Shown here: piece by piece, positions 10,000 through 34,661 of the stretch
Position numbering within the stretch: the first letter of the stretch is position 1
How the letters are laid out: each line of letters begins with the position of its first letter
Assembly (NCBI GenBank): GCA_031268195.1
Contig: JAIRXQ010000024.1
Location: 36,428 to 100,427, forward strand
Source: Azoarcus sp.
GTDB taxonomy: Bacteria > Pseudomonadota > Gammaproteobacteria > Burkholderiales > Rhodocyclaceae
Direction: 5' to 3'
Length of the DNA stretch: 64,000 nucleotides
Position numbers and translations under genes: made by a program
Notes under the pieces: generated by a model
Database searches by the model: none
What the model was told of the DNA's origin: nothing
What the model saw: the letters and a program-made list of their open reading frames with translations, nothing else

Positions 10000-10236
10000 T
10001 TATTTTTTTCCCACGTTATTGTAAATATCGCGGTTCGCCTGCTTGGCGTTGATGCAATTTTCCGTCTTGTTGAGTTTGTCGGGATTTGCCTTGCATTCAC
10101 GCACGACCTCCATGCGTTCGGCGTCGTGGTCCTTGTACCACTCGACACTCTGGACCTCGCGCTCGCAGGCGGTCAGGATCAGGGCGAGCGCGGCGAAGGC
10201 GAACGCGGTTGATGTCGTGGTCATGGTCTTGGTCAT
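10000..10236 (-). CDS. Small lipoprotein resembling EexN/TrbK entry-exclusion lipoproteins
   Basis: Lipobox LTAC then SVEWYKDHDAER...C...NPDKL...NC.NAKQA; ATGA overlap with the FTR1 stop. Confidence 0.65.
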   Translation of the reverse strand: MTKTMTTTSTAFAFAALALILTACEREVQSVEWYKDHDAERMEVVRECKANPDKLNKTENCINAKQANRDIYNNVGKK

Positions 10237-11549
10237 GATGCTTCCTTTTCGAGGATGAATGAACGTTTGCGAATGGCAAACCAGAGGCACGGCAACACAA
10301 GCAGAACCGCCTGCGCGCCAAGGCTTTGCGCGCTGGGAGCGATGCCAAGCCAGCTGATTTGCGGGAAACCGGGAAGGTAGATACTGGCGATCCAGCCCGC
10401 CGCCTGAAGCTCGACGATGGCCTGGCCGAGAAAAACGACCGACATGCCGTAGAGCAGCGCCGAGGTCGCCCCGAAGAACAGGCCAAAGGGCAGCCGCAGC
10501 GCAGCATGGCGCAACAGAAAATAAAAGCCGACGAGCAGCATGGCCGCGAGCACGAATCCTGCCCGCAGCGCACCTTCCTGGCCGGGCGAACCGGCCGCGA
10601 GCGCGCCGTAGAACAGCACCGTCTCCGCGCCTTCGCGATACACGGCGAGGCAGGCCGCGCCGCCCAGGGCGATGAGCGATCCCTTGCCGAGCGCGCTATC
10701 CATCTGGCGCGCGATCCATTCCTCCCAGCGCCGCGCCTCGCGCTTGGCGAACAGCCAGCAACTCACGTAGAACAACATGGCGCTGGCCGCGAGCATGGTG
10801 ACCCCCTCCACGGCGGCCAGCGGCGCGCCGATGCCCTTGAGCAGGCTGTCGAGCGCCCAGCCGGTGATGAGCGAGAGCACGATCGCCACCGCCACCCCCG
10901 CGTGGATCACCCACACCTTGTCCGCGGCGCCGGCGCGGCGCAGGTAGGCTGCGAGCGCGCCGACCACCAGCATGGCTTCGACGCCCTCGCGCAGCAGGAT
11001 GAGGAGCGATTTGAGAAACGCGCCGGTGCCGCCGTCGGCCCCGGCGGCACCGGCCTCGTCGTAGAGACGTTGCGCATCGCCCAGCTTCGCCCGCAGTTCG
11101 CGCCAGGAATTTTCCAGCCGCGCGCGCGGCACGCCGCGCATGGCATCGCCGTTCAGCGCACCGAACAGCACTTCCAGTTCATTTTTGAGGCCGGCATCGC
11201 GTACGCCGAGATCGAGTTCGAGCGCCTCGAAGCGCGCGAAATAGAGCGTCGAGAATTCGGTAGCCGTGGTGAGGGAATTATTTTCGTCATAAGCGGCGAC
11301 GGCGGCATCGCCACGCTCGATGATGCTGGCGACGACCGCCGCGCCATCCGGGGCATCGGCGTAAAGAGGGGAGGCGAAGCCGGCGAGTAGGGAGAAGAAA
11401 AAAACACTCAGACAGAAACGAATCACCCTGCATCCCGCGCCGCCCTCCCCACGGCTGTCTTTCGTCGCCGGGGCACGCACTGCGCGCCTCCCACCCACGC
11501 CCTCCGTGTTGCGCGCGTAGCGCATCCGCAATGACTGAAACATATTCAC
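10233..11549 (-). CDS. FTR1/EfeU-family iron permease with an N-terminal periplasmic domain
   Basis: Both RExxE motifs intact (LLREGVEA, YREGAET), about 7 TM helices, FGLFFGATSALLY...GQAIVELQ. Start uncertain (GTG 11549 or GTG 11426). Confidence 0.88.
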   Translation of the reverse strand: MNMFQSLRMRYARNTEGVGGRRAVRAPATKDSRGEGGAGCRVIRFCLSVFFFSLLAGFASPLYADAPDGAAVVASIIERGDAAVAAYDENNSLTTATEFSTLYFARFEALELDLGVRDAGLKNELEVLFGALNGDAMRGVPRARLENSWRELRAKLGDAQRLYDEAGAAGADGGTGAFLKSLLILLREGVEAMLVVGALAAYLRRAGAADKVWVIHAGVAVAIVLSLITGWALDSLLKGIGAPLAAVEGVTMLAASAMLFYVSCWLFAKREARRWEEWIARQMDSALGKGSLIALGGAACLAVYREGAETVLFYGALAAGSPGQEGALRAGFVLAAMLLVGFYFLLRHAALRLPFGLFFGATSALLYGMSVVFLGQAIVELQAAGWIASIYLPGFPQISWLGIAPSAQSLGAQAVLLVLPCLWFAIRKRSFILEKEAS

Positions 11550-13732
11550 CTCTCGGCCAATATCAGGTTATAGAGCTTGCGCGCGCTCGCCTCGATCCGC
11601 TTGGGTGCATCGTTGCGGGCGGGGGCATAGCGCCAGTCGGCGTAGGCATGCGCCAGGGTCTCCAGCGCATCGCGCCACACCGGGCGAGCCGTACCGACGC
11701 GGCGGGCAAAAGCGGACGGGCATTCCCACGCCTCGCGCTTGTAGCCGCGCCGGGCGAGCAGGCGCGCGAGGCGGTTCCACGCGCGTTGCGGCGGCGGCAG
11801 GTGGCGGGATTCTCGCCACCACGCCAGTGCCTGCGTGGCCGTCATCACCACGGCGCTGCCCAGCGATGCGCCGAGCAGCAGCCACACCCATGCGAACTTG
11901 CCGCCGAGCGTCTTGCCGAGTTTTTCGCCCAATTTGCCGCCGAGCCCGGCGAGTAGGGCTTGCTGCTTCTGACCGTCGAGGCGAAACAGCCAGCGCGTGA
12001 AAAAATCTTCCAGACTGGGCAAACGAAACGCGGTTGGCGGGGCAAAAGCGATTGCCGAAGGCGTCATTTGCGTCGTCGCGGGCGTGGGGGCGCGCTGCGG
12101 CGCGCCCTTGTCGGCGGCGGACTGCGCGGGTTTGGGCGCGGGCGTGGCAGCGGGTTTGGGTTGCGCCTCGGGTTGCCGCGCCGCCTCCGCAAACCGTTCG
12201 GGCGCGACCAGATCGACGGGATCGATGCGCCGCCAGCCGCGCGCCTCGTCCCAGATCTCCGTCCACGCGTGGGCGTGACTTTTTTTGACGATCACATAAT
12301 CGGTGAGCGCCATCAGCTTGCCGCCGCGATAGCCGGTGACGAGGCGCGCCGGGACGCCCGCCGCGCGCATCAGATAAACGAACGCACCCGCAAACAGATC
12401 GGCGTTGCCTTCGCGCGTATCGAACCAGAAGGCGTCGAACGCGTCCGGCCCGGCGCGAAGCTCGAACTGGTCACGCACCTTGTAGCCGTCCTTCGCCAGG
12501 ACGCCGAGCACGCGTTGCAGGCGCTCGTCCAGCGGTCGCGCGGCGAGTTCCGCACCCAGGGCGCGCAAGCGGGGATTGCCGCGCTCGGGCAGCGCCAACG
12601 CGCGGCGGTGCACGGCTTCATCGAGCGCACCGCCGTCTTCCCACTCCAGCCAGGAGCGCAGACGGTAACGGGTTTCCGCCGCCACCGGACGATGCGCGAG
12701 CACCTGCCAATCGGCGCTGACGAAGGATTCCGCCGCGAGCGCGGCGGGTAAATCCAGCCCGTAGAGCCACAGACGGTCGTGCGGCGTCAGGCGCACGGTG
12801 TAGCTGATTTCGTGCGTAGCGCGCGCCAGCGTCGCGGAAAAAGCGCTCGCCTTCGTCCAGCCGCGCCGCATCAGGGCGCGTCCCTGGCCTTCCTCGTATT
12901 CCGCATCGAGCCGCCATTCCGTGCCGTCGAAGTCGTAATACACCGGGCCGCGCCAGTAGAGCAGGCTCGTGGGCGGCACCCAGCCGTCGAACTCGGCCAC
13001 CAGCACCGGGCGCGTCTCCGCCACGCCCGTTTGCGTCTGCCCTTGTCCGGGCTTGAGCCGGGTGGAGACGCCCAGGCCCTGATTCGATTTCTCCAGCCCG
13101 ATCGAAAGCGGCAGGCCGAAGGAGAGGCCGATGTCCCAAAGCGGGCCGGGGATGCGCGGGAAAAACAGGAAGAGGACGGCGGCAAGCGGCAGGGCGAGGA
13201 CAAGGCGCAGCGCGTTGGCGCGCAGGATGCGCGTCACCGGGGGCGAAGGATGATGCCTCCCCGCTGCCGTCTCCAGCACCGCCAGCGCCGACAAAGCCAG
13301 CGCCGCGACGAACGCCAGCCCCGCCCACTCACTCCATTGCAGCAATCCGATCGCGCCCGCCACCACGCCCGCCGCCGCGATCAGGGCAAACTCGCGCGCC
13401 CCGCGCGCCTCGGCCCATTTCAGCGCGAGCACCAGCAAGAGCGCAACGCGCAGCGTGCGAGCCTCCAGCCAACCCCAGGCAAGCCCGGCGAGCGCGACGG
13501 CCACGGCGAGAACGAGCAGGCGAAGCAGCGCTGTCCACGTTTTGTGCGGCAGCGCACGGCTGGCGAACGCCAGCGCAAACGCGGGCCACGCGGGCCACGG
13601 CAGCGCGGGGGCGTGCGCCAGCAGCGCCACCAGCAGCAGCACGAAGCTCCAGCGCAGGCAGGCGCGCTGACATTGGGGCGAATGAGCATTCGCCCAAAAC
13701 AGAGCGTTCAACGCCCGCCGTACAAATTCCAT
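11546..13732 (-). CDS. DUF3488 plus transglutaminase-like (TgpA-type) membrane protein; catalytic Cys apparently replaced by Ala
   Basis: N-terminal TMs, LFLFFPRIPGPLW, YWRGPVY, GNADLFA...RAAGVPARLVTGYRGG, HAHAWTE, IDP. Confidence 0.85.
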   Translation of the reverse strand: MEFVRRALNALFWANAHSPQCQRACLRWSFVLLLVALLAHAPALPWPAWPAFALAFASRALPHKTWTALLRLLVLAVAVALAGLAWGWLEARTLRVALLLVLALKWAEARGAREFALIAAAGVVAGAIGLLQWSEWAGLAFVAALALSALAVLETAAGRHHPSPPVTRILRANALRLVLALPLAAVLFLFFPRIPGPLWDIGLSFGLPLSIGLEKSNQGLGVSTRLKPGQGQTQTGVAETRPVLVAEFDGWVPPTSLLYWRGPVYYDFDGTEWRLDAEYEEGQGRALMRRGWTKASAFSATLARATHEISYTVRLTPHDRLWLYGLDLPAALAAESFVSADWQVLAHRPVAAETRYRLRSWLEWEDGGALDEAVHRRALALPERGNPRLRALGAELAARPLDERLQRVLGVLAKDGYKVRDQFELRAGPDAFDAFWFDTREGNADLFAGAFVYLMRAAGVPARLVTGYRGGKLMALTDYVIVKKSHAHAWTEIWDEARGWRRIDPVDLVAPERFAEAARQPEAQPKPAATPAPKPAQSAADKGAPQRAPTPATTQMTPSAIAFAPPTAFRLPSLEDFFTRWLFRLDGQKQQALLAGLGGKLGEKLGKTLGGKFAWVWLLLGASLGSAVVMTATQALAWWRESRHLPPPQRAWNRLARLLARRGYKREAWECPSAFARRVGTARPVWRDALETLAHAYADWRYAPARNDAPKRIEASARKLYNLILAER

Positions 13733-14100
13733 GCGATCACGTCATCCTTGCTTTCCACACCGTCCGGCCCAAGCGAAAACAGTTCATAGGCATACGCCTG
13801 GCCCGGATTGCGGTACTGATAGGGTCGCCCCCACGGATCGAGCGGCAAAAAAGGAATCTCGCCGTTTTCGACCAGCACTTTGAGCCCGGCCTCCGTGCCG
13901 GGCATCCTCGAGCCGAGCAGCAGCACGCTGCGCAGCGCCCGGATGTCATCGCGGGCGCGGGCATAGTTGGCGTCCTCGCCTTTGGGCAGCCCGGAGACGA
14001 GAAACCATGCCATCCCGGCAGCGGCGGCGGCGGGCACGAACAGCGCCAGACATTCGGCGAGGCTCGGAAGACGAAAAACAGTCGCAGCTTTCGTGGTCAC
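13708..14100 (-). CDS. GspG-like pseudopilin domain protein without a canonical prepilin cleavage site
   Basis: LDPWGRPYQYRNPG and LFSLGPDG..DDV GspG motifs; N-terminus RLP-SLAECL instead of G|FTLxE; AGGAGG RBS. Confidence 0.8.
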   Translation of the reverse strand: MTTKAATVFRLPSLAECLALFVPAAAAAGMAWFLVSGLPKGEDANYARARDDIRALRSVLLLGSRMPGTEAGLKVLVENGEIPFLPLDPWGRPYQYRNPGQAYAYELFSLGPDGVESKDDVIAWNLYGGR

Positions 14101-14149
14101 GATTTGGCCTCCTTTTTGCCAACGGCATGATCCGTATCATCCCTGCTCA

Positions 14150-15217
14150 TCATGGTTCATCCTTGTGCGCCATCCGCGCCAGCTGCCTGTTTGCGTTGCG
14201 TGCGATTTCCTTTTGCCGCTCGCACAGCGCCACGTCCTCGTCAGGCTCGAAAACCCATTCCCAGCCCCAACCGTCGCCATCGTCGATCATCGCCACGATC
14301 TGAACCACGCCGATTTCGACAGAAGAATCGGCCGGGGCATTCGCCAGCGGAAATGTCTCGCCCTGGGAAGGGGAGCGCGTTTGCTTCGTTTCCCCCGGAA
14401 ACAAGCCATGTTCCCAATTGCGCTTGTCCAGCTGCGCGTAAAGAGAACGCTGTGCTTCGGGAAACAGCGGGTCTTTCATCGGCGGCGCCCAACCGATGCC
14501 GAATCGCACCTGCGCACGGGGCTTGCTTTCTCCCGCGAACATGTGCCGCGCATTCACGGTCATGCTCTTGATGCGGTAACGGCTTGCGTTGGCGACGGTG
14601 AGCACCAAGAGATTGTTCATGCCCTGACGCTCGAAGGTGGCGCTCAACAAGCGGACCTTCTCCAATTCGTGCTGTGCAGTCGCACAACGCACATAAGCGG
14701 CCTCGGCTTCGGCCTTGATGATTTGGTAGGACTCCTGTTCCCTCTGGGCGCGGGCGCGTCTTTCTTCCGCGCCATGCGCGCGCGTCTGCATCCTGCGCAG
14801 ACGCTTTTCGCGCAATCCATACGCGGCGGCCCGAATTTCGGGGAGCGTCCTGCCCGCCAAGGAGTGCCTTGCCTTCAATGCAACGACCCCCGGCGAGTTC
14901 AACATCCGCTCGAGCACATAAACGGCGTTGTCGACACCGGCCAGATAGGCAAAAGACTCCGTCCACTTGAAAGGACTGCTGGGGCGCACGTTCTCCCAGA
15001 GATTGAGGATGAAATCCTGCTGCTCCGAACTGTCCATGCCGGCAGTCATTCTTTTCACCGAAGCGATCATGGCCTCTCTGCCGCGGTCATCGAGGCGCAG
15101 TGTCTGCACCCCCCGCTCACGCTCCTCGGCGCCGCCGCAGCCCGCCAGCGCCGAGAGCGCCGCCACGACGGCGCCGAGCCGGAACACCGGCAAAAGGGGC
15201 GGCATGGGCGCGCCCAC
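14150..15217 (-). CDS. Hypothetical lipoprotein
   Basis: Lipobox ALAGC, coiled-coil-like middle, GGAGG RBS; abuts the cytochrome stop. Confidence 0.65.
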   Translation of the reverse strand: MGAPMPPLLPVFRLGAVVAALSALAGCGGAEERERGVQTLRLDDRGREAMIASVKRMTAGMDSSEQQDFILNLWENVRPSSPFKWTESFAYLAGVDNAVYVLERMLNSPGVVALKARHSLAGRTLPEIRAAAYGLREKRLRRMQTRAHGAEERRARAQREQESYQIIKAEAEAAYVRCATAQHELEKVRLLSATFERQGMNNLLVLTVANASRYRIKSMTVNARHMFAGESKPRAQVRFGIGWAPPMKDPLFPEAQRSLYAQLDKRNWEHGLFPGETKQTRSPSQGETFPLANAPADSSVEIGVVQIVAMIDDGDGWGWEWVFEPDEDVALCERQKEIARNANRQLARMAHKDEP

Positions 15218-16863
15218 TACGATTCGCCCTCCTTTTTGCGGCCCGCCTCGTCACCGGCGCGCCGGACGACGCTGGCGCGCGCCGCCCCGACGAAGCGCGC
15301 TTCCTCCAACAGCAGCGGCGGGAGAATCACGTCGACCTTCTTGCCCAAACCCTGGCTCTCGATGTTCTTCAGGATGTCTTGCACCGCGATGCGATACCAC
15401 AGGCGCACATCCACCGTCACCGCGGCCTGCCTGTCCGCGGGCAGTTCGACGCGCACGTCGATCACATCGGTCTGCCCCGGCGAAATGGGCTTGCGCGTGT
15501 AATGCAGTGTAAAGGCATCGAACAGCCGGTGGCGGCCATCGAGCTTGCCGTCGATGTCGCGCACCTCCTTCATCCAGCGCACGGCCTGGGGATCTTCCGC
15601 GCCCTTCGTCTCATCGAAGCGGCCTTGGTGGAAAACGGTGTTGCCCGCCGCATCCTTCGCCTCCACTTCGAGCCACATATAACGCTGGTCGAGCGGGCCG
15701 GTCGGCAGCGCATGGCCCGCCCCGGCGTTGGTCACCGAGACGCGCAGATGCAGCGCGCCATCGGCGGGCGCGCCGGGCACGGCCTCCACACGCAGCTCGG
15801 CGGCTTCGCGCAGCAGGGCGACCACCTGCTCGTTCGTCTTGCTCAATGCCTTGTCGAAGGTCGCACGGTCGTAGAGGCGGTTCAGCCCCGGAGGCGAGCC
15901 GCCGCGCAGGGTGTAAAGCAGCCCGGAAGGCAGGCCGGTGTTGGAGAGCAGGTAATTATTGCCCGCGATGCGGTGCGACACCGTTTTCCGGGGTCGCTCG
16001 CCGCGCTTCAGGGCCGCGACGAACCCGGCAGGGTCGGCGGCCATGTGGCAGTCCTGGCACTGCACGTTTGCCTTCGCCCACGGCGAGTGACGCCATTCGT
16101 CATACGTGTCCTGCAAATTCATCGGCGGCGTCGTGCCATTGACCGAAGTGGGACGAATCTCCGTGTGGCACGCGCCGCACAGGGCGCTCTGGCCCATCAG
16201 CGGCTGCACGCGGCGGGCGCGCATGTCCTCCGAATGGCGCTTGGGCGCGGCGGCGATCAGCGCCGGATGCGCATAACGGAAAATGCCGTTGATATCGATT
16301 TCGAGCGCGCCGTTCCCGGCCAGCGGCTCGGCCTTGTTGACGGCGTGGCAGACGATGCAGGCGGCGCCTTCTTCCATCGCGGCGATTTCCTGCACGCTGT
16401 TGGCCAGTGTCACCGCCCCGGAGAGCGTGCCGAGCGGGTTGTGGCAAGCCTCGCACCAGCGCCCTTTTTCGATGCCGTGCGACTGACCGGCGCGGGTCGC
16501 GGAAGCATTCTCCAGTACTGTGCTGTCGTAGATCAGATCCTTGTCGGAGATGGCGTGCATCGAGCTTGCCCACTCCAGCGTTTCCTTGCGGTGGCACTCG
16601 CCGCAGCTCAACGCCCCCGGCACCGCGCGCCAGTTGAGAAGCTTGCCGTCGGGCGTGGAAATCTCCGCCGGATGGAAGGCTGACTGCGCCTTGCCGAAAG
16701 GCTGCGAATAAAGCGGCAAATCCCGCGCCACTTCAACCGTCAGATCGGTGGGCGGCGGCAAGAGTTTATCGAGCGCGAGCGCCGCCACGACCGTGATGAC
16801 GAGGGCGAGCAGAAAACGCGTGAGCGGCAGCGAGAAAACGCGAGCGGGTAATTTGATTTTCAT
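15217..16863 (-). CDS. Membrane-anchored pentaheme c-type cytochrome (c554-like core plus C-terminal beta domain)
   Basis: Five CxxCH: CGECH, CEACH, CIVCH, CGACH, CQDCH; N-terminal TM/signal; NAGAGHALPTG motif. Confidence 0.88.
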   Translation of the reverse strand: MKIKLPARVFSLPLTRFLLALVITVVAALALDKLLPPPTDLTVEVARDLPLYSQPFGKAQSAFHPAEISTPDGKLLNWRAVPGALSCGECHRKETLEWASSMHAISDKDLIYDSTVLENASATRAGQSHGIEKGRWCEACHNPLGTLSGAVTLANSVQEIAAMEEGAACIVCHAVNKAEPLAGNGALEIDINGIFRYAHPALIAAAPKRHSEDMRARRVQPLMGQSALCGACHTEIRPTSVNGTTPPMNLQDTYDEWRHSPWAKANVQCQDCHMAADPAGFVAALKRGERPRKTVSHRIAGNNYLLSNTGLPSGLLYTLRGGSPPGLNRLYDRATFDKALSKTNEQVVALLREAAELRVEAVPGAPADGALHLRVSVTNAGAGHALPTGPLDQRYMWLEVEAKDAAGNTVFHQGRFDETKGAEDPQAVRWMKEVRDIDGKLDGRHRLFDAFTLHYTRKPISPGQTDVIDVRVELPADRQAAVTVDVRLWYRIAVQDILKNIESQGLGKKVDVILPPLLLEEARFVGAARASVVRRAGDEAGRKKEGES

Positions 16864-17453
16864 GACAGCGCCCGCTTGGGAAAGTGCAGCAGCACGAAAA
16901 AGACGAACAACCCGGCAAAGGTGATGTGCACCCGCAGGAGCGCCGCCGCCGTGCCGAACGGCATCACCGTGGGCTTCCCGGTCAGGTAGAGCACGGCGGG
17001 CGCGGCGATCACCAGACCGCTGGCGACCGTCAGCAGCAAACAGCAGGTGAGCATGTAGCCGAGGATGCGGTGATAAAGAGATTCACCCCGGTAGATTTGA
17101 TGCAGCATCCGCCAGGGCATCACGAGATTGAGCAGCTTCTCCTTGCCGTCGTGCAGATGGACGAACAGGAAGGGAATGAAGAACACCAGCGCCAGCGCGC
17201 CGGAGACGAGATGCGCCACCAGCGCCACCAGCGTGAGATGCCCGTTGCCAAGCGGCATCGCCAGCACGACTCCTGTCGCGGTGGCAATGCCAAGGCTGTA
17301 GACCATCGCCAGCAGGAGATGGCGCGAGGATTCGCGCGTGCGCCAGACCAGGAGGCCAGAGGAGGCGGGCGCGGCCTCATTCTTGCCTTTTTCCGGCGTG
17401 GACGTAGCCGGGGGGGGAGTTGCCTCTTTCCAGACAAGCACATCGTCATTCAT
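16860..17453 (-). CDS. 4-TM His-containing membrane protein (cytochrome b-like)
   Basis: Four hydrophobic helices with His (AHLVSG, FVHLH, RVH...LLHF 14 residues apart); ATG 17453; ATGA-coupled to the cytochrome. Confidence 0.65.
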   Translation of the reverse strand: MNDDVLVWKEATPPPATSTPEKGKNEAAPASSGLLVWRTRESSRHLLLAMVYSLGIATATGVVLAMPLGNGHLTLVALVAHLVSGALALVFFIPFLFVHLHDGKEKLLNLVMPWRMLHQIYRGESLYHRILGYMLTCCLLLTVASGLVIAAPAVLYLTGKPTVMPFGTAAALLRVHITFAGLFVFFVLLHFPKRALS

Positions 17454-18318
17454 GATCTTCGCTCCACAAATACAGTGCCAACCGTTGCAGGCATGCGCTG
17501 CGATGCGCGCGGCCGCGTCCCGGCGGCAGCGACGGGCCGTCATCGAGGCGCAAGCCGTACTCCAGCCCGCAGCGCTCGGCCTCGCATACCCATTGGCAAA
17601 GCTGCGACAGGCGGCTTTCCACATCGCCCGCACAGGCGGCGATGTCCAGCCACAACGCGTGGCCACCCCGTCCGCCGTCGAAATCATTGACCACCAGCTC
17701 CCCATTGCCGCTGCGCGCCGCAATGCGCCAGTTGACCCGGCGCGGCGCATCGCCCGGCGCATAGCGCCGCACGCCGCGAAAATCGCTCGCTTCCTGCTTG
17801 CTGTGCGCCGGGTTGGGCGCGTGTCCCGGCAGGGGCGCCGTGCCCGCCGGATGCGGCCAGACGAGCGCCATCATGTCCGGCAAGGCGCGGCGCGCCCGCC
17901 ACAACCCGAGCGGATGCGGCGAGACGAGGCACAGGCCGCGCACCGTACGCCGGCCGCGCGCGGGGGCGGGCAACGAGCATTCGAGCGGCGCGTCGCCCAC
18001 GCCCGGCGCGCCCTGCGCAGCGGGCGTGACGAGTTGCAGCGGATCGCGCCGCCGCGCCTTTTCATCGCGCACGCTACCCGCGAGATTCAGCGCCTCGCCC
18101 GCAAACGCGGTGGCTTGCGGCGCGGGCAGCCATTCCAGGCCGGCAAGGTTGCGGCGGCACTGCCAGCCCGCCGTCATCCACACCGAGAGCAGCACGAAGG
18201 CAAACGCAAACACAAGGTTGTTGCCGTAATTGATCGCCACCGCCAGCAGCGCCAGCACCGCCACAAGCCAGAACAGCCCGGCGGCGGTGGGCACGAGAAC
18301 GATGCGCGACGGCTTCAT
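17446..18318 (-). CDS. DUF58 domain protein
   Basis: AINYGNNL, PLGLWRA, DFRGVRRYAPGDAPRRVNWR; follows MoxR. Confidence 0.88.
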   Translation of the reverse strand: MKPSRIVLVPTAAGLFWLVAVLALLAVAINYGNNLVFAFAFVLLSVWMTAGWQCRRNLAGLEWLPAPQATAFAGEALNLAGSVRDEKARRRDPLQLVTPAAQGAPGVGDAPLECSLPAPARGRRTVRGLCLVSPHPLGLWRARRALPDMMALVWPHPAGTAPLPGHAPNPAHSKQEASDFRGVRRYAPGDAPRRVNWRIAARSGNGELVVNDFDGGRGGHALWLDIAACAGDVESRLSQLCQWVCEAERCGLEYGLRLDDGPSLPPGRGRAHRSACLQRLALYLWSEDHE

Positions 18319-18331
18319 GACAGCCTCACGC

Positions 18332-19273
18332 TCACGGCAGCGGCACGGCCGCCAAAAGCTCGCGCGCCGCCGCCGCCGATTCGCGCGCATCCCCGATGCC
18401 GAGGCGATGCATCGCCACACACGGAAACACCGCCTGCACATCGTCCGGCAACACATGATCGCGCCCGTCGAGCAGCGCCCACGCCCGCGCCGCCGCCAGC
18501 AGGGCCTGCGCGCCGCGCGGCGAGAGCCCGTAGGCCAGCCCCGCGCCGTGGCGGGTGTGCTCGGCCAGCGCGCGGATATAAGCCAGCAGCGGCTCGGCGG
18601 CGTGCAGGGCGCGCGCGCGCGTCTGCAAATCGAGCAGCCGCGCCGCGTCCAGCGCCGCTTCGAGCCGCTCGAGCAGCACACGGCGGTCCTCGCCGCGCAG
18701 GATTTCCAGCTCCGCCGTCGCATCCGGGTAGCCGAGCGACAGGCGCATCAGAAAGCGGTCGAGCTGCGCCTCCGGCAGCGGATTGGTGGAACTCTGGTCG
18801 ACCGGGTTCTGGGTGGCGATGACAAAAAAAGGCTTCGGCAGCGGGCGGCTTTCGCCGTCGCTCGACACCTGCCGCTCCTCCATCGCCTCCAGCAGCGCCG
18901 ATTGCGTCTTGGGCGAAGCGCGGTTGATCTCGTCGGCCAACAACACCTGCGTGAACACCGGGCCGGGATGAAAAACGAACGCCCCCGTATCGCGCTGGAA
19001 AATCGCCGCCCCCGTCAAATCGCCCGGCAGCATGTCACTGGTAAATTGCACACGCTTGAACGCCAGCCCCATGACACGGGCCAGCGCATGCGCAAACACC
19101 GTCTTGCCCATGCCCGGCAAATCTTCGAGCAGCAGATGCCCGCCCGCGACGAGACAGGCCAGCGCCAGCCGTACCGCCTCGGCCTTGCCGAGCAGAATTT
19201 CGCCCACGGCGTCGGCGGCGCGCTGGAGATCGGTAGCGGTGGCGGCGGCGGGGGGGGTATGCAGATCGTTCAT
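18332..19273 (-). CDS. MoxR-family AAA+ ATPase
   Basis: HLLLEDLPGMGKT, LLADEINRASPKTQSALLEAMEE, ATQNP, LPEAQLDRF. Confidence 0.93.
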   Translation of the reverse strand: MNDLHTPPAAATATDLQRAADAVGEILLGKAEAVRLALACLVAGGHLLLEDLPGMGKTVFAHALARVMGLAFKRVQFTSDMLPGDLTGAAIFQRDTGAFVFHPGPVFTQVLLADEINRASPKTQSALLEAMEERQVSSDGESRPLPKPFFVIATQNPVDQSSTNPLPEAQLDRFLMRLSLGYPDATAELEILRGEDRRVLLERLEAALDAARLLDLQTRARALHAAEPLLAYIRALAEHTRHGAGLAYGLSPRGAQALLAAARAWALLDGRDHVLPDDVQAVFPCVAMHRLGIGDARESAAAARELLAAVPLP

Positions 19274-19286
19274 GCGGCGGATGTCC

Positions 19287-20324
19287 TTAAAAGCGTTGCT
19301 GATAGCCCACAGCGGCCGACCAGCTGTCGAGATTGACTTCGTTGAGATCGGTGCGTCCCCTGCCGCCGGAAGCGGGGTAGTAATAGCGATCACCCCGTCT
19401 CAGCCGCAGCATCTGCTGATCCAGCCGGAGCGTGAGCGCGCGCTCGGGCGTCAGCCACCACGCCGCGCCCATGCCCAGTTGCCAGCCATAGCTGTCGCCC
19501 TTTTGACGATGCGTGGTCGGCTGCGCCAGATCGCCGCGCAGGTTCCAGGTCGAATCGGCGCGCAGCTTGAACCACTGCCGCTTCGCCGAAATATTGAAAG
19601 CGAACCTCTCCGTGGGCTGCGCATCGATCCGCAACCCCAGCCACGGACCGCGCCAGCTGGGCCGGTAGTGCGAATCCAGCCCGTGGAAGCGGCCCAGATC
19701 ACCGTACACCGTGTCGATGACCAGCACCCCGTGGCGCATCCGCATGTCGTGTTCCTGGTAGGCGTAGCCGAGCATCGGCTTGAAGCTGACGCGGGCAAAC
19801 GGATCGAATCGCCAGCCCACGCCGGCGGACAGGCGGGTGGCGCTGCTGCCGTCCACCTTGGCGTAAGAGCGCGAGAACTCACCGCGCCGGTTGTCGTATA
19901 AGTAATCGGAGTCCCGGTTTCTCCCGTCGAAGGCGGTGGCGTGCGCCAGATCCATCTCCGCGACGAAACCCTCGTCACCTTCCCAATCGAAGTCGACGCG
20001 CAACTCCGCCATGTCCGTTTTCCACTTGAGCTCGGAGACGATGTTCGGCACCCCGCCCGCTCCCGCGATGTTGTAATCGATCGTCTCCCGCCGATAACCA
20101 AGCGAGATCGACCATGTGGCGTTGCCATCGATGAAACTGGCCGCAGCGTCCCCGGGCGCGGGCGGCTCCGCCACGCGGCGGATTTTCGCCACTGGGGCCG
20201 CCGGGCGCGCCTGTGGCGTCTCGTACACCCAGATGTTTGCTTCATCGAGCGGATGCGCCGCCAGCGGCGCGGAGAGCAGCGCAAAGAGCGCCAGCGGCAA
20301 AAAACGGGCGTGGTGGCATTTCAT
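19287..20324 (-). CDS. Omptin-like outer-membrane beta-barrel
   Basis: Signal peptide; VSELKWK, GRNRDSDY and YRPSWRGPWLGL parallel recalled OmpT segments (VSQLDWK, NMVDQDW, YKQRFKMPYIGL); C-terminal Phe. Confidence 0.7.
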   Translation of the reverse strand: MKCHHARFLPLALFALLSAPLAAHPLDEANIWVYETPQARPAAPVAKIRRVAEPPAPGDAAASFIDGNATWSISLGYRRETIDYNIAGAGGVPNIVSELKWKTDMAELRVDFDWEGDEGFVAEMDLAHATAFDGRNRDSDYLYDNRRGEFSRSYAKVDGSSATRLSAGVGWRFDPFARVSFKPMLGYAYQEHDMRMRHGVLVIDTVYGDLGRFHGLDSHYRPSWRGPWLGLRIDAQPTERFAFNISAKRQWFKLRADSTWNLRGDLAQPTTHRQKGDSYGWQLGMGAAWWLTPERALTLRLDQQMLRLRRGDRYYYPASGGRGRTDLNEVNLDSWSAAVGYQQRF

Positions 20325-22669
20325 GGCTGTTCCACGGCTTGTTCGTAGGGTTGATGGGAGATGGCGTAGGCCCACGTCCAGGAGCGTTCGCCGCCCGCGG
20401 CGTCGAGCTGCTTGCGTTCCACCACCATGGCCGCCCAGCGCCCGACGATGCGCGTCGGCGTCAGCGTCGCGGGCCGGGCGTTCAGGTTGATGACGCGCAG
20501 CGCCGTGATGTAGTAGCCGTCTTTCTGCCAGGCGGCCACCGCCTGGAATTCCAGATCGTCGCCCAGCTGGCGCGTCTGACGCGCGGCAATGGGCAGGTGA
20601 ACCGGCTGCAAATCTCCGGGCGGCGGCGCGGTGGGGTCTTCCTGCCGCACCGCGTCGGCGGCGGCGCGCGCCAAGCCGCCGAGACGTTCGAGCTCGGCCT
20701 TGTTGCTGCTCGCCGCCGCAGCGGCGGGCGGGGCGGCCGCCGGCGTTGCGCCGCCTGCCGCCGCGGCCAGCCCGAAAGCCGGGTCGAACATGGAGTCGCG
20801 CTTCTCGGGTTTGGCCGTCGCGGCCAGTCCCTGCGAGGAGCCGCCGGCATCCAGCGAACGCACTTCGGCCTCCTTGCCCCGCGCCAGCGTGTCGCTTTCT
20901 TCCGGCGTCTCCAGCACGTGCGGCGTAATCAGCAGCACGATCTGCTTGCGCACGTTGGATTTCACCTTTTTCTTGAAGAGCACGCCGAGGCCCGGAATAT
21001 CGCCGAGCAAAGGGACTTTTTCTTCCGCATCGGAGACGCGCTGCGAAATCATGCCGCCCACCGCCACGGTGAGTCCGTCGCGCGCATGCGCGGTCACCTG
21101 CAGGTTGGCGGTGTTGACCGTGTCGATGGGGTAATCGAAGGTTTCGCCGTTGGGCAGCGGCAGCGGCATGCGCGCGCCGCCCGCGTTGATGCGGGAATTG
21201 TCCTGGTCGACGGTGAGCGTCACCGAGCGGTCGGCGTTGATGCGCGGCAAAATGATGAGTGTCTGGCCGACGTTGCGCCGCTCGGTCTCCACCGTGATCG
21301 TGGTGTTGTTTGCGCCGGTGGTGCCGGTGGTGCTGTCGGATTCCGCGCCGGTGATGAGAATTTGTTCATCCCCGATGAAAAGGCGCGCGGGCTGGTTGTT
21401 CGATGCCACCAACATCGGCGTGGCAAGCACGTTGACACGGTTTTCACTCTCCAGCATTTGCAGGCGCAGGCGCAGGGTGTCGCTCACCAGTTGCCAGACG
21501 GCGGTGGCGGTTTCCTCGGGGCCGAAATTGCCGAGCGAGGCGGCGTTGCGGGGATAGCCGCCTGCCACGCTGCCGTCGATGTCGCTGCCGTGGTTCAGGC
21601 CGTACGGCCCGCTCGTGCCGTTGTCCCGCACGCGGGTGGTGCTGTTGCCGCTCAAGCCGATGTCGAACACCGAGCGGAAGTCGCCCCCCAGCTCCACTTC
21701 GAGGATGCGCATCTCCAGCAGCACCTGACGCGGCGGGTGATCCATGTCCGTGACGAGTTTGTCGATGTCTTTCAGCGCCGCCTCGTCGCTGGTGCGCACC
21801 AGCAGCAGATTGTGCTGCTTGTTGTAGGTAATGTTGATCGGCGGGCCCTGGTTGGAGACCGCCTGTTGCAGCTCGGAGGCCTCGACGCGCATCACCGCGC
21901 TGCCATCGATGTCGAGCGAAGCTTCCAGACCGGCTTGCGAGACGTTGGCGATTTCCGTGCGCGGGTCTTTCCCCGCCATCTGTCTCACGCCCCGACTGCC
22001 GCCGCTGCGCCGCGTGGTCGCGCCTTCCGGACTCATGGAAAAGCCGCGGCTCGAACCGCCGCCCAGTCCCATGCCGCCGCTTGCGCCGTTCATGCCGCTC
22101 GAGCGGCTTCCCGTGCTGCCGGTTTGCGTGCGGGCGGTGCTGCCCATTTCGAGCGGCGGCATTTCCTCCACTGGCTCGACGAGATTGACCCGTTCGCCAT
22201 AGAGCGCGGCAATCGCGTTGGCAATGCTGACGACATTGTTGTGGCGAAGCATGTAGTTGCGCGTGATCTCGTCGCGCGTGATGGCGATGTCCTGCTGGTA
22301 TTCCTTGGCATCCATCAGGATGTAAGCCTTGGTCTGGCTGTCGTAGCGATACCAGACCCCGGCGGCGCGCGAAAGGCTTCTCACCATGCCTTCGACATTG
22401 ACATCGCGCAGGTAGAGCGACACTTTCTTGTTCGCCACGCTGGAGGTGACGACGATGCTGGTCTTGCCGATCTGCGAGATGAACTGCGCCGCTTCATCGA
22501 GCGTGATCTGCTTGAAATACACGTCTCCCGGCGAACCGTTGGCGTCGAGCCTGGCGGGCTGTAGCGGGCGCGCGGCGGCGGGTAGCGCGGCCGTGAGCGC
22601 CAGCGCCAGCGCCGTAACCCGCAAAACGGGGGAAAAGCATTCGAGTCTTCGCATGGTTGACCTGTTCAT
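20321..22669 (-). CDS. Secretin (GspD/PilQ family) with an extra C-terminal domain
   Basis: Signal, N0-like and N3 domains, QVLLEMRILEV, VLATPMLVASNNQPA, TVAVGGMI, KVPLLGDIPGLGVLFK, IVLLITPHV. Confidence 0.92.
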   Translation of the reverse strand: MNRSTMRRLECFSPVLRVTALALALTAALPAAARPLQPARLDANGSPGDVYFKQITLDEAAQFISQIGKTSIVVTSSVANKKVSLYLRDVNVEGMVRSLSRAAGVWYRYDSQTKAYILMDAKEYQQDIAITRDEITRNYMLRHNNVVSIANAIAALYGERVNLVEPVEEMPPLEMGSTARTQTGSTGSRSSGMNGASGGMGLGGGSSRGFSMSPEGATTRRSGGSRGVRQMAGKDPRTEIANVSQAGLEASLDIDGSAVMRVEASELQQAVSNQGPPINITYNKQHNLLLVRTSDEAALKDIDKLVTDMDHPPRQVLLEMRILEVELGGDFRSVFDIGLSGNSTTRVRDNGTSGPYGLNHGSDIDGSVAGGYPRNAASLGNFGPEETATAVWQLVSDTLRLRLQMLESENRVNVLATPMLVASNNQPARLFIGDEQILITGAESDSTTGTTGANNTTITVETERRNVGQTLIILPRINADRSVTLTVDQDNSRINAGGARMPLPLPNGETFDYPIDTVNTANLQVTAHARDGLTVAVGGMISQRVSDAEEKVPLLGDIPGLGVLFKKKVKSNVRKQIVLLITPHVLETPEESDTLARGKEAEVRSLDAGGSSQGLAATAKPEKRDSMFDPAFGLAAAAGGATPAAAPPAAAAASSNKAELERLGGLARAAADAVRQEDPTAPPPGDLQPVHLPIAARQTRQLGDDLEFQAVAAWQKDGYYITALRVINLNARPATLTPTRIVGRWAAMVVERKQLDAAGGERSWTWAYAISHQPYEQAVEQP

Positions 22670-34632: not shown

Positions 34633-34661
34633 ACGATAATTATTCTTATTTTTGTTGTCAA
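34633..34661 (-). promoter_or_regulatory. Sigma70 promoter overlapped by a Fur box
   Basis: -35 TTGACA (34661-34656), 17-bp spacer, -10 TATCGT (34638-34633); AAAAATAAGAATAATTATC (34653-34635) matches 14/19 of GATAATGATAATCATTATC. Confidence 0.75.

Follow-up and report, generated by a model that had tools for sequence, protein, structure and literature searches.

The window considered here is a stretch of 64,000 nucleotides from Azoarcus sp. (assembly GCA_031268195.1, contig JAIRXQ010000024.1, positions 36,428 to 100,427 of the forward strand), and coordinates are positions within it unless another contig or locus is named. Among its genes are those for an iron permease of the FTR1 family (10233–11549), a membrane-anchored pentahaem cytochrome c of 548 amino acids with a C-terminal Ig-like domain (15217–16863), and a four-helix protein of 197 amino acids that resembles cytochromes b and is probably a dihaem protein (16860–17453), all three on the minus strand. 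From 22669 down to 10000 every gene lies on this strand and the genes are closely packed or overlapping; the stop of the four-helix gene and the start of the cytochrome c gene share the overlap ATGA, the start of the four-helix gene overlaps the stop of a DUF58-like gene by ATGAATGA, and the segment 10233–19393 is probably the distal part of a long, Fur-repressed operon. An earlier note on this DNA had proposed that the permease is paired here with the two cytochromes instead of its usual oxidase. The ATGA coupling it described is present, and permease and cytochromes do belong to the same minus-strand operon, but the note had overlooked that other genes are interleaved with them: three genes lie between cytochrome c and FTR1, encoding a 355-aa lipoprotein, a GspG-like protein and a TgpA-like protein that lacks its catalytic cysteine, and genes for a MoxR ATPase and the DUF58-like protein stand directly upstream of the four-helix gene.

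The permease is of the FtrC/FetM type, matches PF03239 with 104.5 bits against a cut-off of 25.3, and is the only FTR1 in the assembly, which is 95% complete. Both of its RExxE motifs are intact, as the earlier note had said (REGVE at residues 187–191, nucleotides 10977–10991, and REGAE at residues 305–309, nucleotides 10623–10637), and both occur in 53–55 of 55 cytochrome-linked FTR1 homologues. The start codon is ambiguous, with GTG at 11549 or ATG at 11543 on the one hand and GTG at 11426 on the other; the last of these gives a clean signal peptide and a length that matches the FTR1 proteins of relatives. Ahead of the permease domain is a helical, periplasmic N-domain of about 110 aa, for which no Pfam family was found, as was also the case for the long N-terminal extension of the FTR1 proteins of a second subfamily described below (type 2; the window belongs to type 1). 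Residues Y103, E108, E111, E126 and W149 of the N-domain are invariant in 21 type-1 homologues, and its glutamate-rich residues could form a carboxylate iron site. The window FTR1 is 42% identical, over 88% of its length, to the FTR1 gene of an ftrABCD-like locus on an Azospirillum plasmid, which also encodes a P19 'iron transporter' and a 4Fe-4S protein, and 36% identical over 88% to plasmid-borne FetM-type genes of E. coli; in each case the aligned part takes in the periplasmic N-domain. Its score against the EfeU equivalog NF041756 is 98.6 bits, well short of the cut-off of 255.

The cytochrome c contains exactly five CxxCH motifs (C87, C137, C169, C229 and C269), which account for all ten of its cysteines, and a predicted N-terminal helix at residues 13–34, in agreement with the membrane-anchored, five-motif cytochrome of the earlier note. 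No other open reading frame (ORF) of the 2.5 Mb assembly has as many as five CxxCH motifs; three ORFs on contig C85 have four. In the AlphaFold2 model (mean pLDDT, the predicted local distance difference test score, 87.8) the N-terminal helix is followed by a haem domain and, at the C-terminus, by a beta-sandwich; the one protein that it matches strongly in structure is the pentahaem cytochrome c552 of Thermochromatium tepidum (5ZE8; Foldseek E = 2.3e-13, template modelling (TM) score 0.68 on target). A profile of the family finds the same protein (E = 2e-13), aligning an invariant GAGHALPTG with PHAMPTG, an H-x-x-PTG motif. Across 56 cytochrome c sequences the invariant histidines outside the CxxCH motifs are likewise exactly five, namely H103, H210, H297, H384 and H445, and five CxxCH motifs together with five further invariant histidines suggest five bis-His haems, and hence an electron carrier rather than a protein with a catalytic haem. 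The next profile match is the selenoenzyme MccSep/ExtKL, but the window protein scores only 51.3 bits against the corresponding equivalog NF040886, with a cut-off of 250, and has no catalytic selenocysteine or cysteine. We also considered membership of the NapC/NirT/CymA family and rejected it: matches to Cytochrom_NNT are weak or precomputed only, the number of haems is different, and the cytochrome b is here a protein of its own.

The four-helix protein was compared with the products of the ORFs that immediately precede the cytochrome gene in 68 related loci, giving a set of 69 sequences. Although identity within this set falls to about 20%, four histidines (H81, H99, H176 and H190) are invariant in 69/69, as are G61, G85, G146 and P152. 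The AlphaFold2 model has four long helices (mean pLDDT 86.7), with H81 and H99 on helix 2 and H176 and H190 on helix 4, bearing out the description in the earlier note of a protein with four transmembrane helices and paired histidines. The top Foldseek match is HyaC of E. coli hydrogenase-1 (4gd3_A; probability 0.99, TM score 0.54–0.61, but E = 0.5), followed by STEAP1, b6 and bc1, so that the only coherent matches are cytochromes b. The family profile finds FdnI (1KQF chain C, E = 5.5e-5), placing H81 on FdnI H57, H176 on H155 and H190 on H169, three residues that reportedly ligate haem in the FdnI structure, and the H176/H190 pair also aligns with a histidine pair of cytochrome b6. PF01292 matches a Paracoccus homologue with 16.6 bits, against a cut-off of 30.1, and precomputed PF01292 matches exist for a few four-helix homologues and for one fusion of the four-helix protein with cytochrome c. 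We conclude that the four-helix protein is probably a dihaem cytochrome b of the FdnI/HyaC superfamily. From the distribution of charges in its loops both termini are predicted to be cytoplasmic, in which case H81 and H176 would hold a haem near the periplasm, and H99 and H190 one near the cytoplasm. In Pseudothauera, in Rubrivivax and in a Rhodocyclaceae metagenome-assembled genome the four-helix protein is fused to the N-terminus of the cytochrome c. These natural fusions suggest that the two proteins form a physical complex and that the N-terminal helix of the cytochrome is a true membrane anchor and not a cleaved signal, and they make a cleaved signal peptide with export of the cytochrome by the machine resembling a type II secretion system (T2SS) unlikely.

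Partners of FTR1 permeases known from other systems include the multicopper oxidase Fet3, EfeO and EfeB, P19/FetP, FtrB and FtrD, and small cytochrome c domains fused to the permease itself. The proteins of the window operon include no multicopper oxidase, EfeB peroxidase, cupredoxin, P19 or Fe-S protein in a Pfam and NCBIfam scan, as the earlier note had claimed for the usual partners. Nor does the assembly as a whole supply a canonical partner from elsewhere, the outcome that would have undermined the proposed pairing: there are no matches to P19 (PF10634), EfeO/M75 (PF09375), multicopper oxidases (PF07732, Cu-oxidase_3) or DyP (PF04261), and positive controls worked in every one of these searches. 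The single Cupredoxin_1 match (contig C40, 45918–46166, locus L082) is NosZ, the nitrous-oxide reductase, which is thus the only cupredoxin-domain protein of the genome. Other iron genes in the assembly are those for FeoB and for two TonB-dependent receptors.

A scan of one genome per species yielded at least 401 relatives of the cytochrome c, of which the best 80 loci were examined, and linkage was counted in the 47 loci with at least 6 kb of flanking sequence on both sides, FTR1 being sought by hmmsearch within 10 kb. FTR1 was found in 41 of the 47, in several gene orders and phyla, including the Alpha-, Beta- and Gammaproteobacteria, Chloroflexi (Anaerolineae), Nitrospina, Thermaerobacter and Sulfurovum, which supports the co-occurrence that the earlier note had put forward as a check. 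Writing 4TM for the four-helix protein, MHC for the pentahaem cytochrome and X357 for a conserved periplasmic protein of 357 aa, the order is X357-4TM-MHC-FTR1 in 30 loci of the type 2 subfamily, whose members include Pseudomonas, Halomonas, Rhizobiales, Paracoccus, Thermaerobacter and Sulfurovum, and FTR1-X357-4TM-MHC in five Chloroflexi (Anaerolineae) loci; 12 loci are window-like, and others are permuted. The gene order of the window is found in Azovibrio restrictus DSM 23866, and Pseudomonas borbori DSM 17834 and Paracoccus solventivorans DSM 6637 are among the cultured carriers. In Pseudomonas and Paracoccus 4-nt overlaps join the three genes, and the type 2 FTR1 proteins carry N-terminal extensions of about 490 aa. 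X357 precedes the four-helix gene in every type 2 locus (L053, 8282–9355, and 35 others), has no Pfam match at E ≤ 5 and no sequence match in the PDB, and is absent from the genome of the window. It is 60–85% identical between Alpha- and Gammaproteobacteria, exceeding the conservation of the cytochrome, which suggests that the module moves as a unit. In the type 1 subfamily a GspG-like gene always follows the cytochrome, MoxR, DUF58 and TgpA-like genes accompany FTR1, and three arrangements are seen of the block [4TM-MHC-GspG] relative to the block [MoxR-(DUF58)-TgpA-FTR1]. The identity matrices of MHC and FTR1 are strongly correlated (r = 0.92, Mantel p = 0.001), although part of this is expected from shared descent. 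One close relative (L012) lacks FTR1 after the TgpA-like gene and has in its place a 773-aa ORF without a family that may be spurious, and we treat it as uninformative.

The cytochrome pair extends well beyond the loci linked to FTR1. A profile search of 1.84 billion representative sequences gave 6168 matches at E ≤ 1e-3 and 570 at E ≤ 1e-30, many of them fusions of 660–680 aa in which the N-terminal domain has the H-18-H / H-14-H pattern of the four-helix protein. This unit of a cytochrome b and a pentahaem cytochrome c, b-c5, is therefore a broader, unstudied module of which the FTR1-linked proteins are one branch. In the databases every homologue of the four-helix protein goes by the name 'hypothetical protein'.

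The other genes of the distal operon, all on the minus strand, fall into those that are conserved with the module and those that are not. The MoxR-class AAA+ ATPase (18332–19393) matches PF07726 AAA_3 (E = 8e-60) and AAA_lid_2, and is kept in related loci at 50–87% identity; DUF58 proteins are the usual partners of MoxR, and the adjoining DUF58-like gene (17446–18318, with its start at ATG 18318) matches PF01882 with E = 0.002, under the cut-off. The TgpA-like membrane protein (11546–13732) has the TgpA_N, transglutaminase core and DUF4129 domains of Pfam, but alanine replaces the catalytic cysteine (GNADLFA; 12401–12403) and the Cys-His-Asp catalytic triad is incomplete. Of 24 related loci, 22 have Ala, Ser or Ile at this position; the two with Cys, L037 and L047, are loci without FTR1, and a second TgpA in the genome of the window, beside a second MoxR on contig C80, also keeps the cysteine (GFCEHFA). 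To judge from these residues the operon copy looks like a conserved pseudo-enzyme and is probably a non-catalytic scaffold. The GspG-like protein (13708–14100) has a pseudopilin fold and matches PF08334 T2SSG (E = 4e-14), but reaches only 46.9 bits against the GspG equivalog TIGR01710, with a cut-off of 88.85. Its prepilin motif, G/FxLxE, has decayed in the clade of the window (LPSLAE, versus GFSLIE in gammaproteobacterial relatives), while DPWG..Y.Y and S.GPDG..S.DD are invariant among 42 homologues. The 355-aa lipoprotein (14150–15217), whose gene has a strong Shine-Dalgarno sequence, matches no Pfam or NCBIfam family. We considered it as a part of the module and rejected it, since in close relatives it is missing between the cytochrome and GspG-like genes and its only match, in L015, is 27% identical; by its distribution it is best described as a lineage-specific insertion. 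The last gene of the operon encodes an EexN-family lipoprotein (10000–10290; NF033894, E = 4e-21) and is kept after FTR1 in six close relatives at 63–70% identity; this family is of the entry-exclusion type and is an odd neighbour for an iron permease. Upstream of MoxR are genes for a Pom/omptin-like barrel (19287–20375) and a secretin (20321–22669), and further upstream of the secretin lie ATPases of the T2SS or type IV pilus type and pilin-like genes.

A Fur-box-like site (34633–34661, minus strand) spans the spacer between the -35 and -10 elements of the promoter that heads the minus-strand gene array. This promoter, at about 34660, consists of TTGACA followed by AATAAGAATAATTATC, with a 14/19 match to the Fur consensus, and the site is the only one in the window with five or fewer mismatches. 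Similar sites with 3–4 mismatches precede the four-helix gene by 35–55 nt in L037, L047 and L080, all of them gammaproteobacterial, and likewise the fused gene of a Sneathiellales locus (L033), and a weaker one stands just upstream of the block in L036. A further gene bears on which way the electrons flow. In six loci (L036, L037, L039, L047, L050 and L080) the 4TM-MHC-GspG block is followed directly by a gene with the domains Fer2-FAD_binding_6-NAD_binding_1 (for example 12004–13041 in L036 and 12110–13183 in L080), and in the Nitrospina locus, L039, this reductase gene and FTR1 occur together. A cytoplasmic reductase of the NAD(P)H type can only donate electrons to the wire, which argues for outward flow and the reduction of a periplasmic acceptor.

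These observations point to haem-based handling of iron before its import, and suggest that FTR1, together with a cytochrome b in the membrane and a pentahaem cytochrome c, makes up an apparently undescribed variant of the FTR1 oxidoreductase-permease systems. In the scheme that we prefer, one b haem on the periplasmic side (H81 and H176) and one on the cytoplasmic side (H99 and H190) would let electrons cross the membrane, and the five c haems, probably all bis-His and acting as pure carriers in a protein held in the inner membrane by one helix, would extend the wire into the periplasm toward the glutamate-rich N-domain of FTR1. Electrons from quinol, or from NAD(P)H by way of a soluble protein of the ferredoxin-reductase type, would reduce periplasmic Fe(III) to Fe(II), which FTR1 would then take up, so that the b-c wire would replace the P19, cupredoxin, polyferredoxin, EfeO/EfeB or multicopper-oxidase partner of other FTR1 systems. 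MoxR, the DUF58-like protein, the Cys-less TgpA-like protein and the GspG-like protein are conserved additions in the lineage of the window, probably with roles in assembly or scaffolding. That cytochromes and permease are partners, whatever the direction of the electrons, we consider likely; for the full reading, in which the dihaem-b/pentahaem-c wire serves FTR1 under iron starvation with outward flow and reduction of Fe(III), we would give a probability of about 0.5. Of the iron redox module feeding the permease that the earlier note had envisaged, the haem-based replacement of the usual partner is supported by the linkage in 41/47 loci, the correlation of 0.92, the resemblance of the four-helix protein to cytochromes b and the lack of a canonical partner elsewhere in the assembly. 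The module may be linked to quinone, as that note had suggested, but the reductase gene of six relatives points to NAD(P)H-driven outward flow and reduction of Fe(III) rather than to O2-independent oxidation of Fe(II).

Several observations weigh against this reading. Six of the 47 fully flanked loci have no FTR1, a distant b-c5 fusion (L085, 2895–4925) adjoins FG-GAP/ASPIC and DsbA-like genes and not FTR1, and in the window itself the cytochrome and the permease are three genes apart in an operon that also encodes a whole type IV-filament/secretin machine, which the cytochromes could serve instead. No NAD(P)H-type reductase gene is present in the window operon, and the homologue on contig C15 is 37–39% identical and not specific. 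The window four-helix protein reaches no Pfam cut-off and has no PF01292 match, and H99, the fourth histidine, has no counterpart among the ligands of FdnI: it sits at the cytoplasmic end of helix 2, while the corresponding FdnI ligand is on helix 1. As to the haem b sites that the earlier note had wanted checked by structure prediction, the predicted four-helix bundle, with three histidines that align with FdnI ligands, a fourth on a different helix and HyaC as top match at the E-value given above, makes them candidate sites. The permeases themselves also count on this side, as the usual model for FTR1/FtrC proteins requires a ferrous oxidase (PMC11966278), which favours the opposite flow.

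In the main rival reading the same parts, run in that opposite direction, would form an O2-independent ferroxidase, in which the pentahaem cytochrome oxidises Fe(II) at the N-domain and passes the electrons through the b haems to quinone on the cytoplasmic side, in the manner of FdnI and HyaC, while FTR1 moves Fe(III) as in the model for Fet3-Ftr1 and FtrABCD. Besides the classification of these permeases as oxidase-dependent, this would agree with the use by FtrABCD of Fe(II) only (PMC11966278), and with the 42% identity of the window FTR1 to an FtrC-type gene that adjoins P19 and a 4Fe-4S protein. The habitat would also suit it, for the names of close homologues suggest a termite gut, where there would be little O2 for a copper oxidase, and cytochromes b of the FdnI/HyaC type are established carriers of electrons inward to quinone. 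The reductase encoded in the block of six relatives would nevertheless be thermodynamically unable to accept electrons from Fe(II), and multihaem proteins that are all bis-His would be expected to have low potentials, better suited to reduction than to the oxidation of Fe(II) at neutral pH; low potentials are reportedly a feature of the related c552 as well. Free Fe(II) already has FeoB as its route in this genome, which we count in favour of outward flow. Our preference for reduction of Fe(III) rests on the gene for an NAD(P)H-type reductase found in six relatives and on the Fur-box-like sites immediately ahead of the module in four, and we hold the inward direction to be rather unlikely.

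Two further explanations would uncouple the cytochromes from iron. They might serve the type IV-filament/secretin machine of the operon, as an electron outlet or as a redox sensor for the pseudopilus, with FTR1 a co-regulated neighbour; this fits with the GspG-type gene that follows the cytochrome in all 42 loci of the window subfamily, with the secretin, ATPases and pilins upstream in the window and in most beta- and gammaproteobacterial relatives, and with some loci that have 4TM-MHC-GspG and no FTR1 nearby. However, the other subfamily retains 4TM-MHC-FTR1 in 35 loci that have neither pilus nor secretin nor GspG genes, and both the fusion to cytochrome b and the conserved transmembrane anchor speak against export of the cytochrome, so that we regard a filament function as quite improbable. 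Alternatively, the wire could act on a substrate other than iron, such as copper, manganese, disulfide or sulfur species, or reactive oxygen, and help iron uptake indirectly, for example through protection or maturation of the permease together with MoxR and DUF58. A sulfur-reducing selenoenzyme, MccSep/ExtKL, is among the distant relatives, the DsbA-like neighbour of the distant b-c5 fusion also points this way, and MoxR-vWA pairs insert metal cofactors elsewhere (NorQ/NorD and CoxD/CoxE). Set against the absence of a catalytic Cys or Sec and of any candidate for open haem coordination, given five CxxCH motifs and five invariant histidines, and against the tight linkage to FTR1 and the Fur-box-like sites, both of which indicate iron, we find such a substrate very improbable indeed.

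Among the closest described systems is FtrABCD of Bordetella, Brucella and Burkholderia (PMC11966278), which has a similar FtrC-type permease, with two RExxE motifs and a helical N-domain, and follows the same logic, in which the permease is accompanied, under low iron, by a redox protein in the periplasm and another in the membrane. The window operon and its genome differ in having no P19 (FtrA), cupredoxin (FtrB) or polyferredoxin (FtrD), and where FtrABCD uses copper and Fe-S, the module described here would use five c haems and two b haems. The FetMP(-Fls) systems of E. coli and Salmonella plasmids have the FetM permease already compared above, N-domain included, but FetM is longer (628 aa) and is accompanied by the P19-type FetP and by neighbouring Fe-S, flavin mononucleotide-binding and ABC genes, none of which is present here. 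EfeUOB resembles it in its FTR1-family permease, with the weak EfeU match noted above, yet neither EfeO (M75) nor EfeB (DyP) is encoded in the genome, and the multicopper oxidase of oxidase-permease pairs of the Fet3/Ftr1 type is likewise missing (PF07732). Reductive iron uptake in yeast joins the Fre1 reductase to Fet3/Ftr1, and MsrQ-Fre is a two-component, NOX-like system; both recall the proposed module in having an NAD(P)H-fed dihaem-b path, coupled to FTR1 in yeast, and a separate Fer2-FAD-NAD reductase in the six relatives would correspond to this. In the window, however, the b protein probably has the FdnI/HyaC fold and not a ferric-reductase domain, a pentahaem cytochrome c is interposed, and there is no multicopper oxidase.

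Some FTR1 permeases carry small fused cytochrome c domains, and thus also have c-type haem beside FTR1, whereas the pentahaem protein of the window is separate from the permease and comes with a membrane cytochrome b. FdnI and HyaC (PDB 1KQF chain C and 4GD3 chain A) resemble the four-helix protein in its predicted four-helix bundle, and three of its four invariant histidines align with those of FdnI, but they pair with a dehydrogenase or a respiratory conduit, and the window protein with a pentahaem protein beside an iron permease. Geobacter CbcL is a b-c fusion, with a b domain of the HydC/FdnI type and a multihaem c domain, and so resembles those relatives of the window pair in which b and c domains are fused. 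The c552 of T. tepidum has the same five-haem and Ig-like domains and the H-x-x-PTG motif, but is only 16% identical, and the window protein has in addition a transmembrane anchor and a cytochrome b partner. MccSep/ExtKL (PDB 9WT9; bioRxiv 10.1101/2025.11.18.688581) has a Sec/Cys active site that is missing from the window cytochrome. A full-text literature search for FTR1 or iron permeases together with multiheme, pentaheme or b/b561-type cytochromes found no description of such a module.

A bolder extension of the preferred reading takes the whole Fur-headed operon of about 24.6 kb as one envelope-spanning machine for harvesting iron, in which secretin, omptin-like barrel and GspG-type pseudopilus would reach or admit external Fe(III), the b-c wire would reduce it with electrons from the cytoplasm or from quinol, and a unit of MoxR, DUF58 and pseudo-transglutaminase would assemble or gate FTR1. 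We think this unlikely, but if true it would constitute a new class of reductive iron acquisition, combining a type IV-filament machine with a haem wire of the respiratory kind.

If the preferred reading of a haem wire serving FTR1 is correct, FTR1 would have a widespread partner that works without copper or O2, with seven haems wired to the electron pool of the membrane or cytoplasm, and it would become clear how FTR1 is operated by bacteria living where O2 is absent or copper is scarce, for instance in termite guts, sediments and activated sludge. Several families whose present annotation is just 'hypothetical protein' or 'multiheme c-type cytochrome' would also gain a function, and the wider b-c5 unit may prove to be a general, unstudied electron outlet of the periplasm. 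The module is carried by cultured strains of Azovibrio, Pseudomonas, Paracoccus, Shinella, Halomonas and Motiliproteus, which make it testable.

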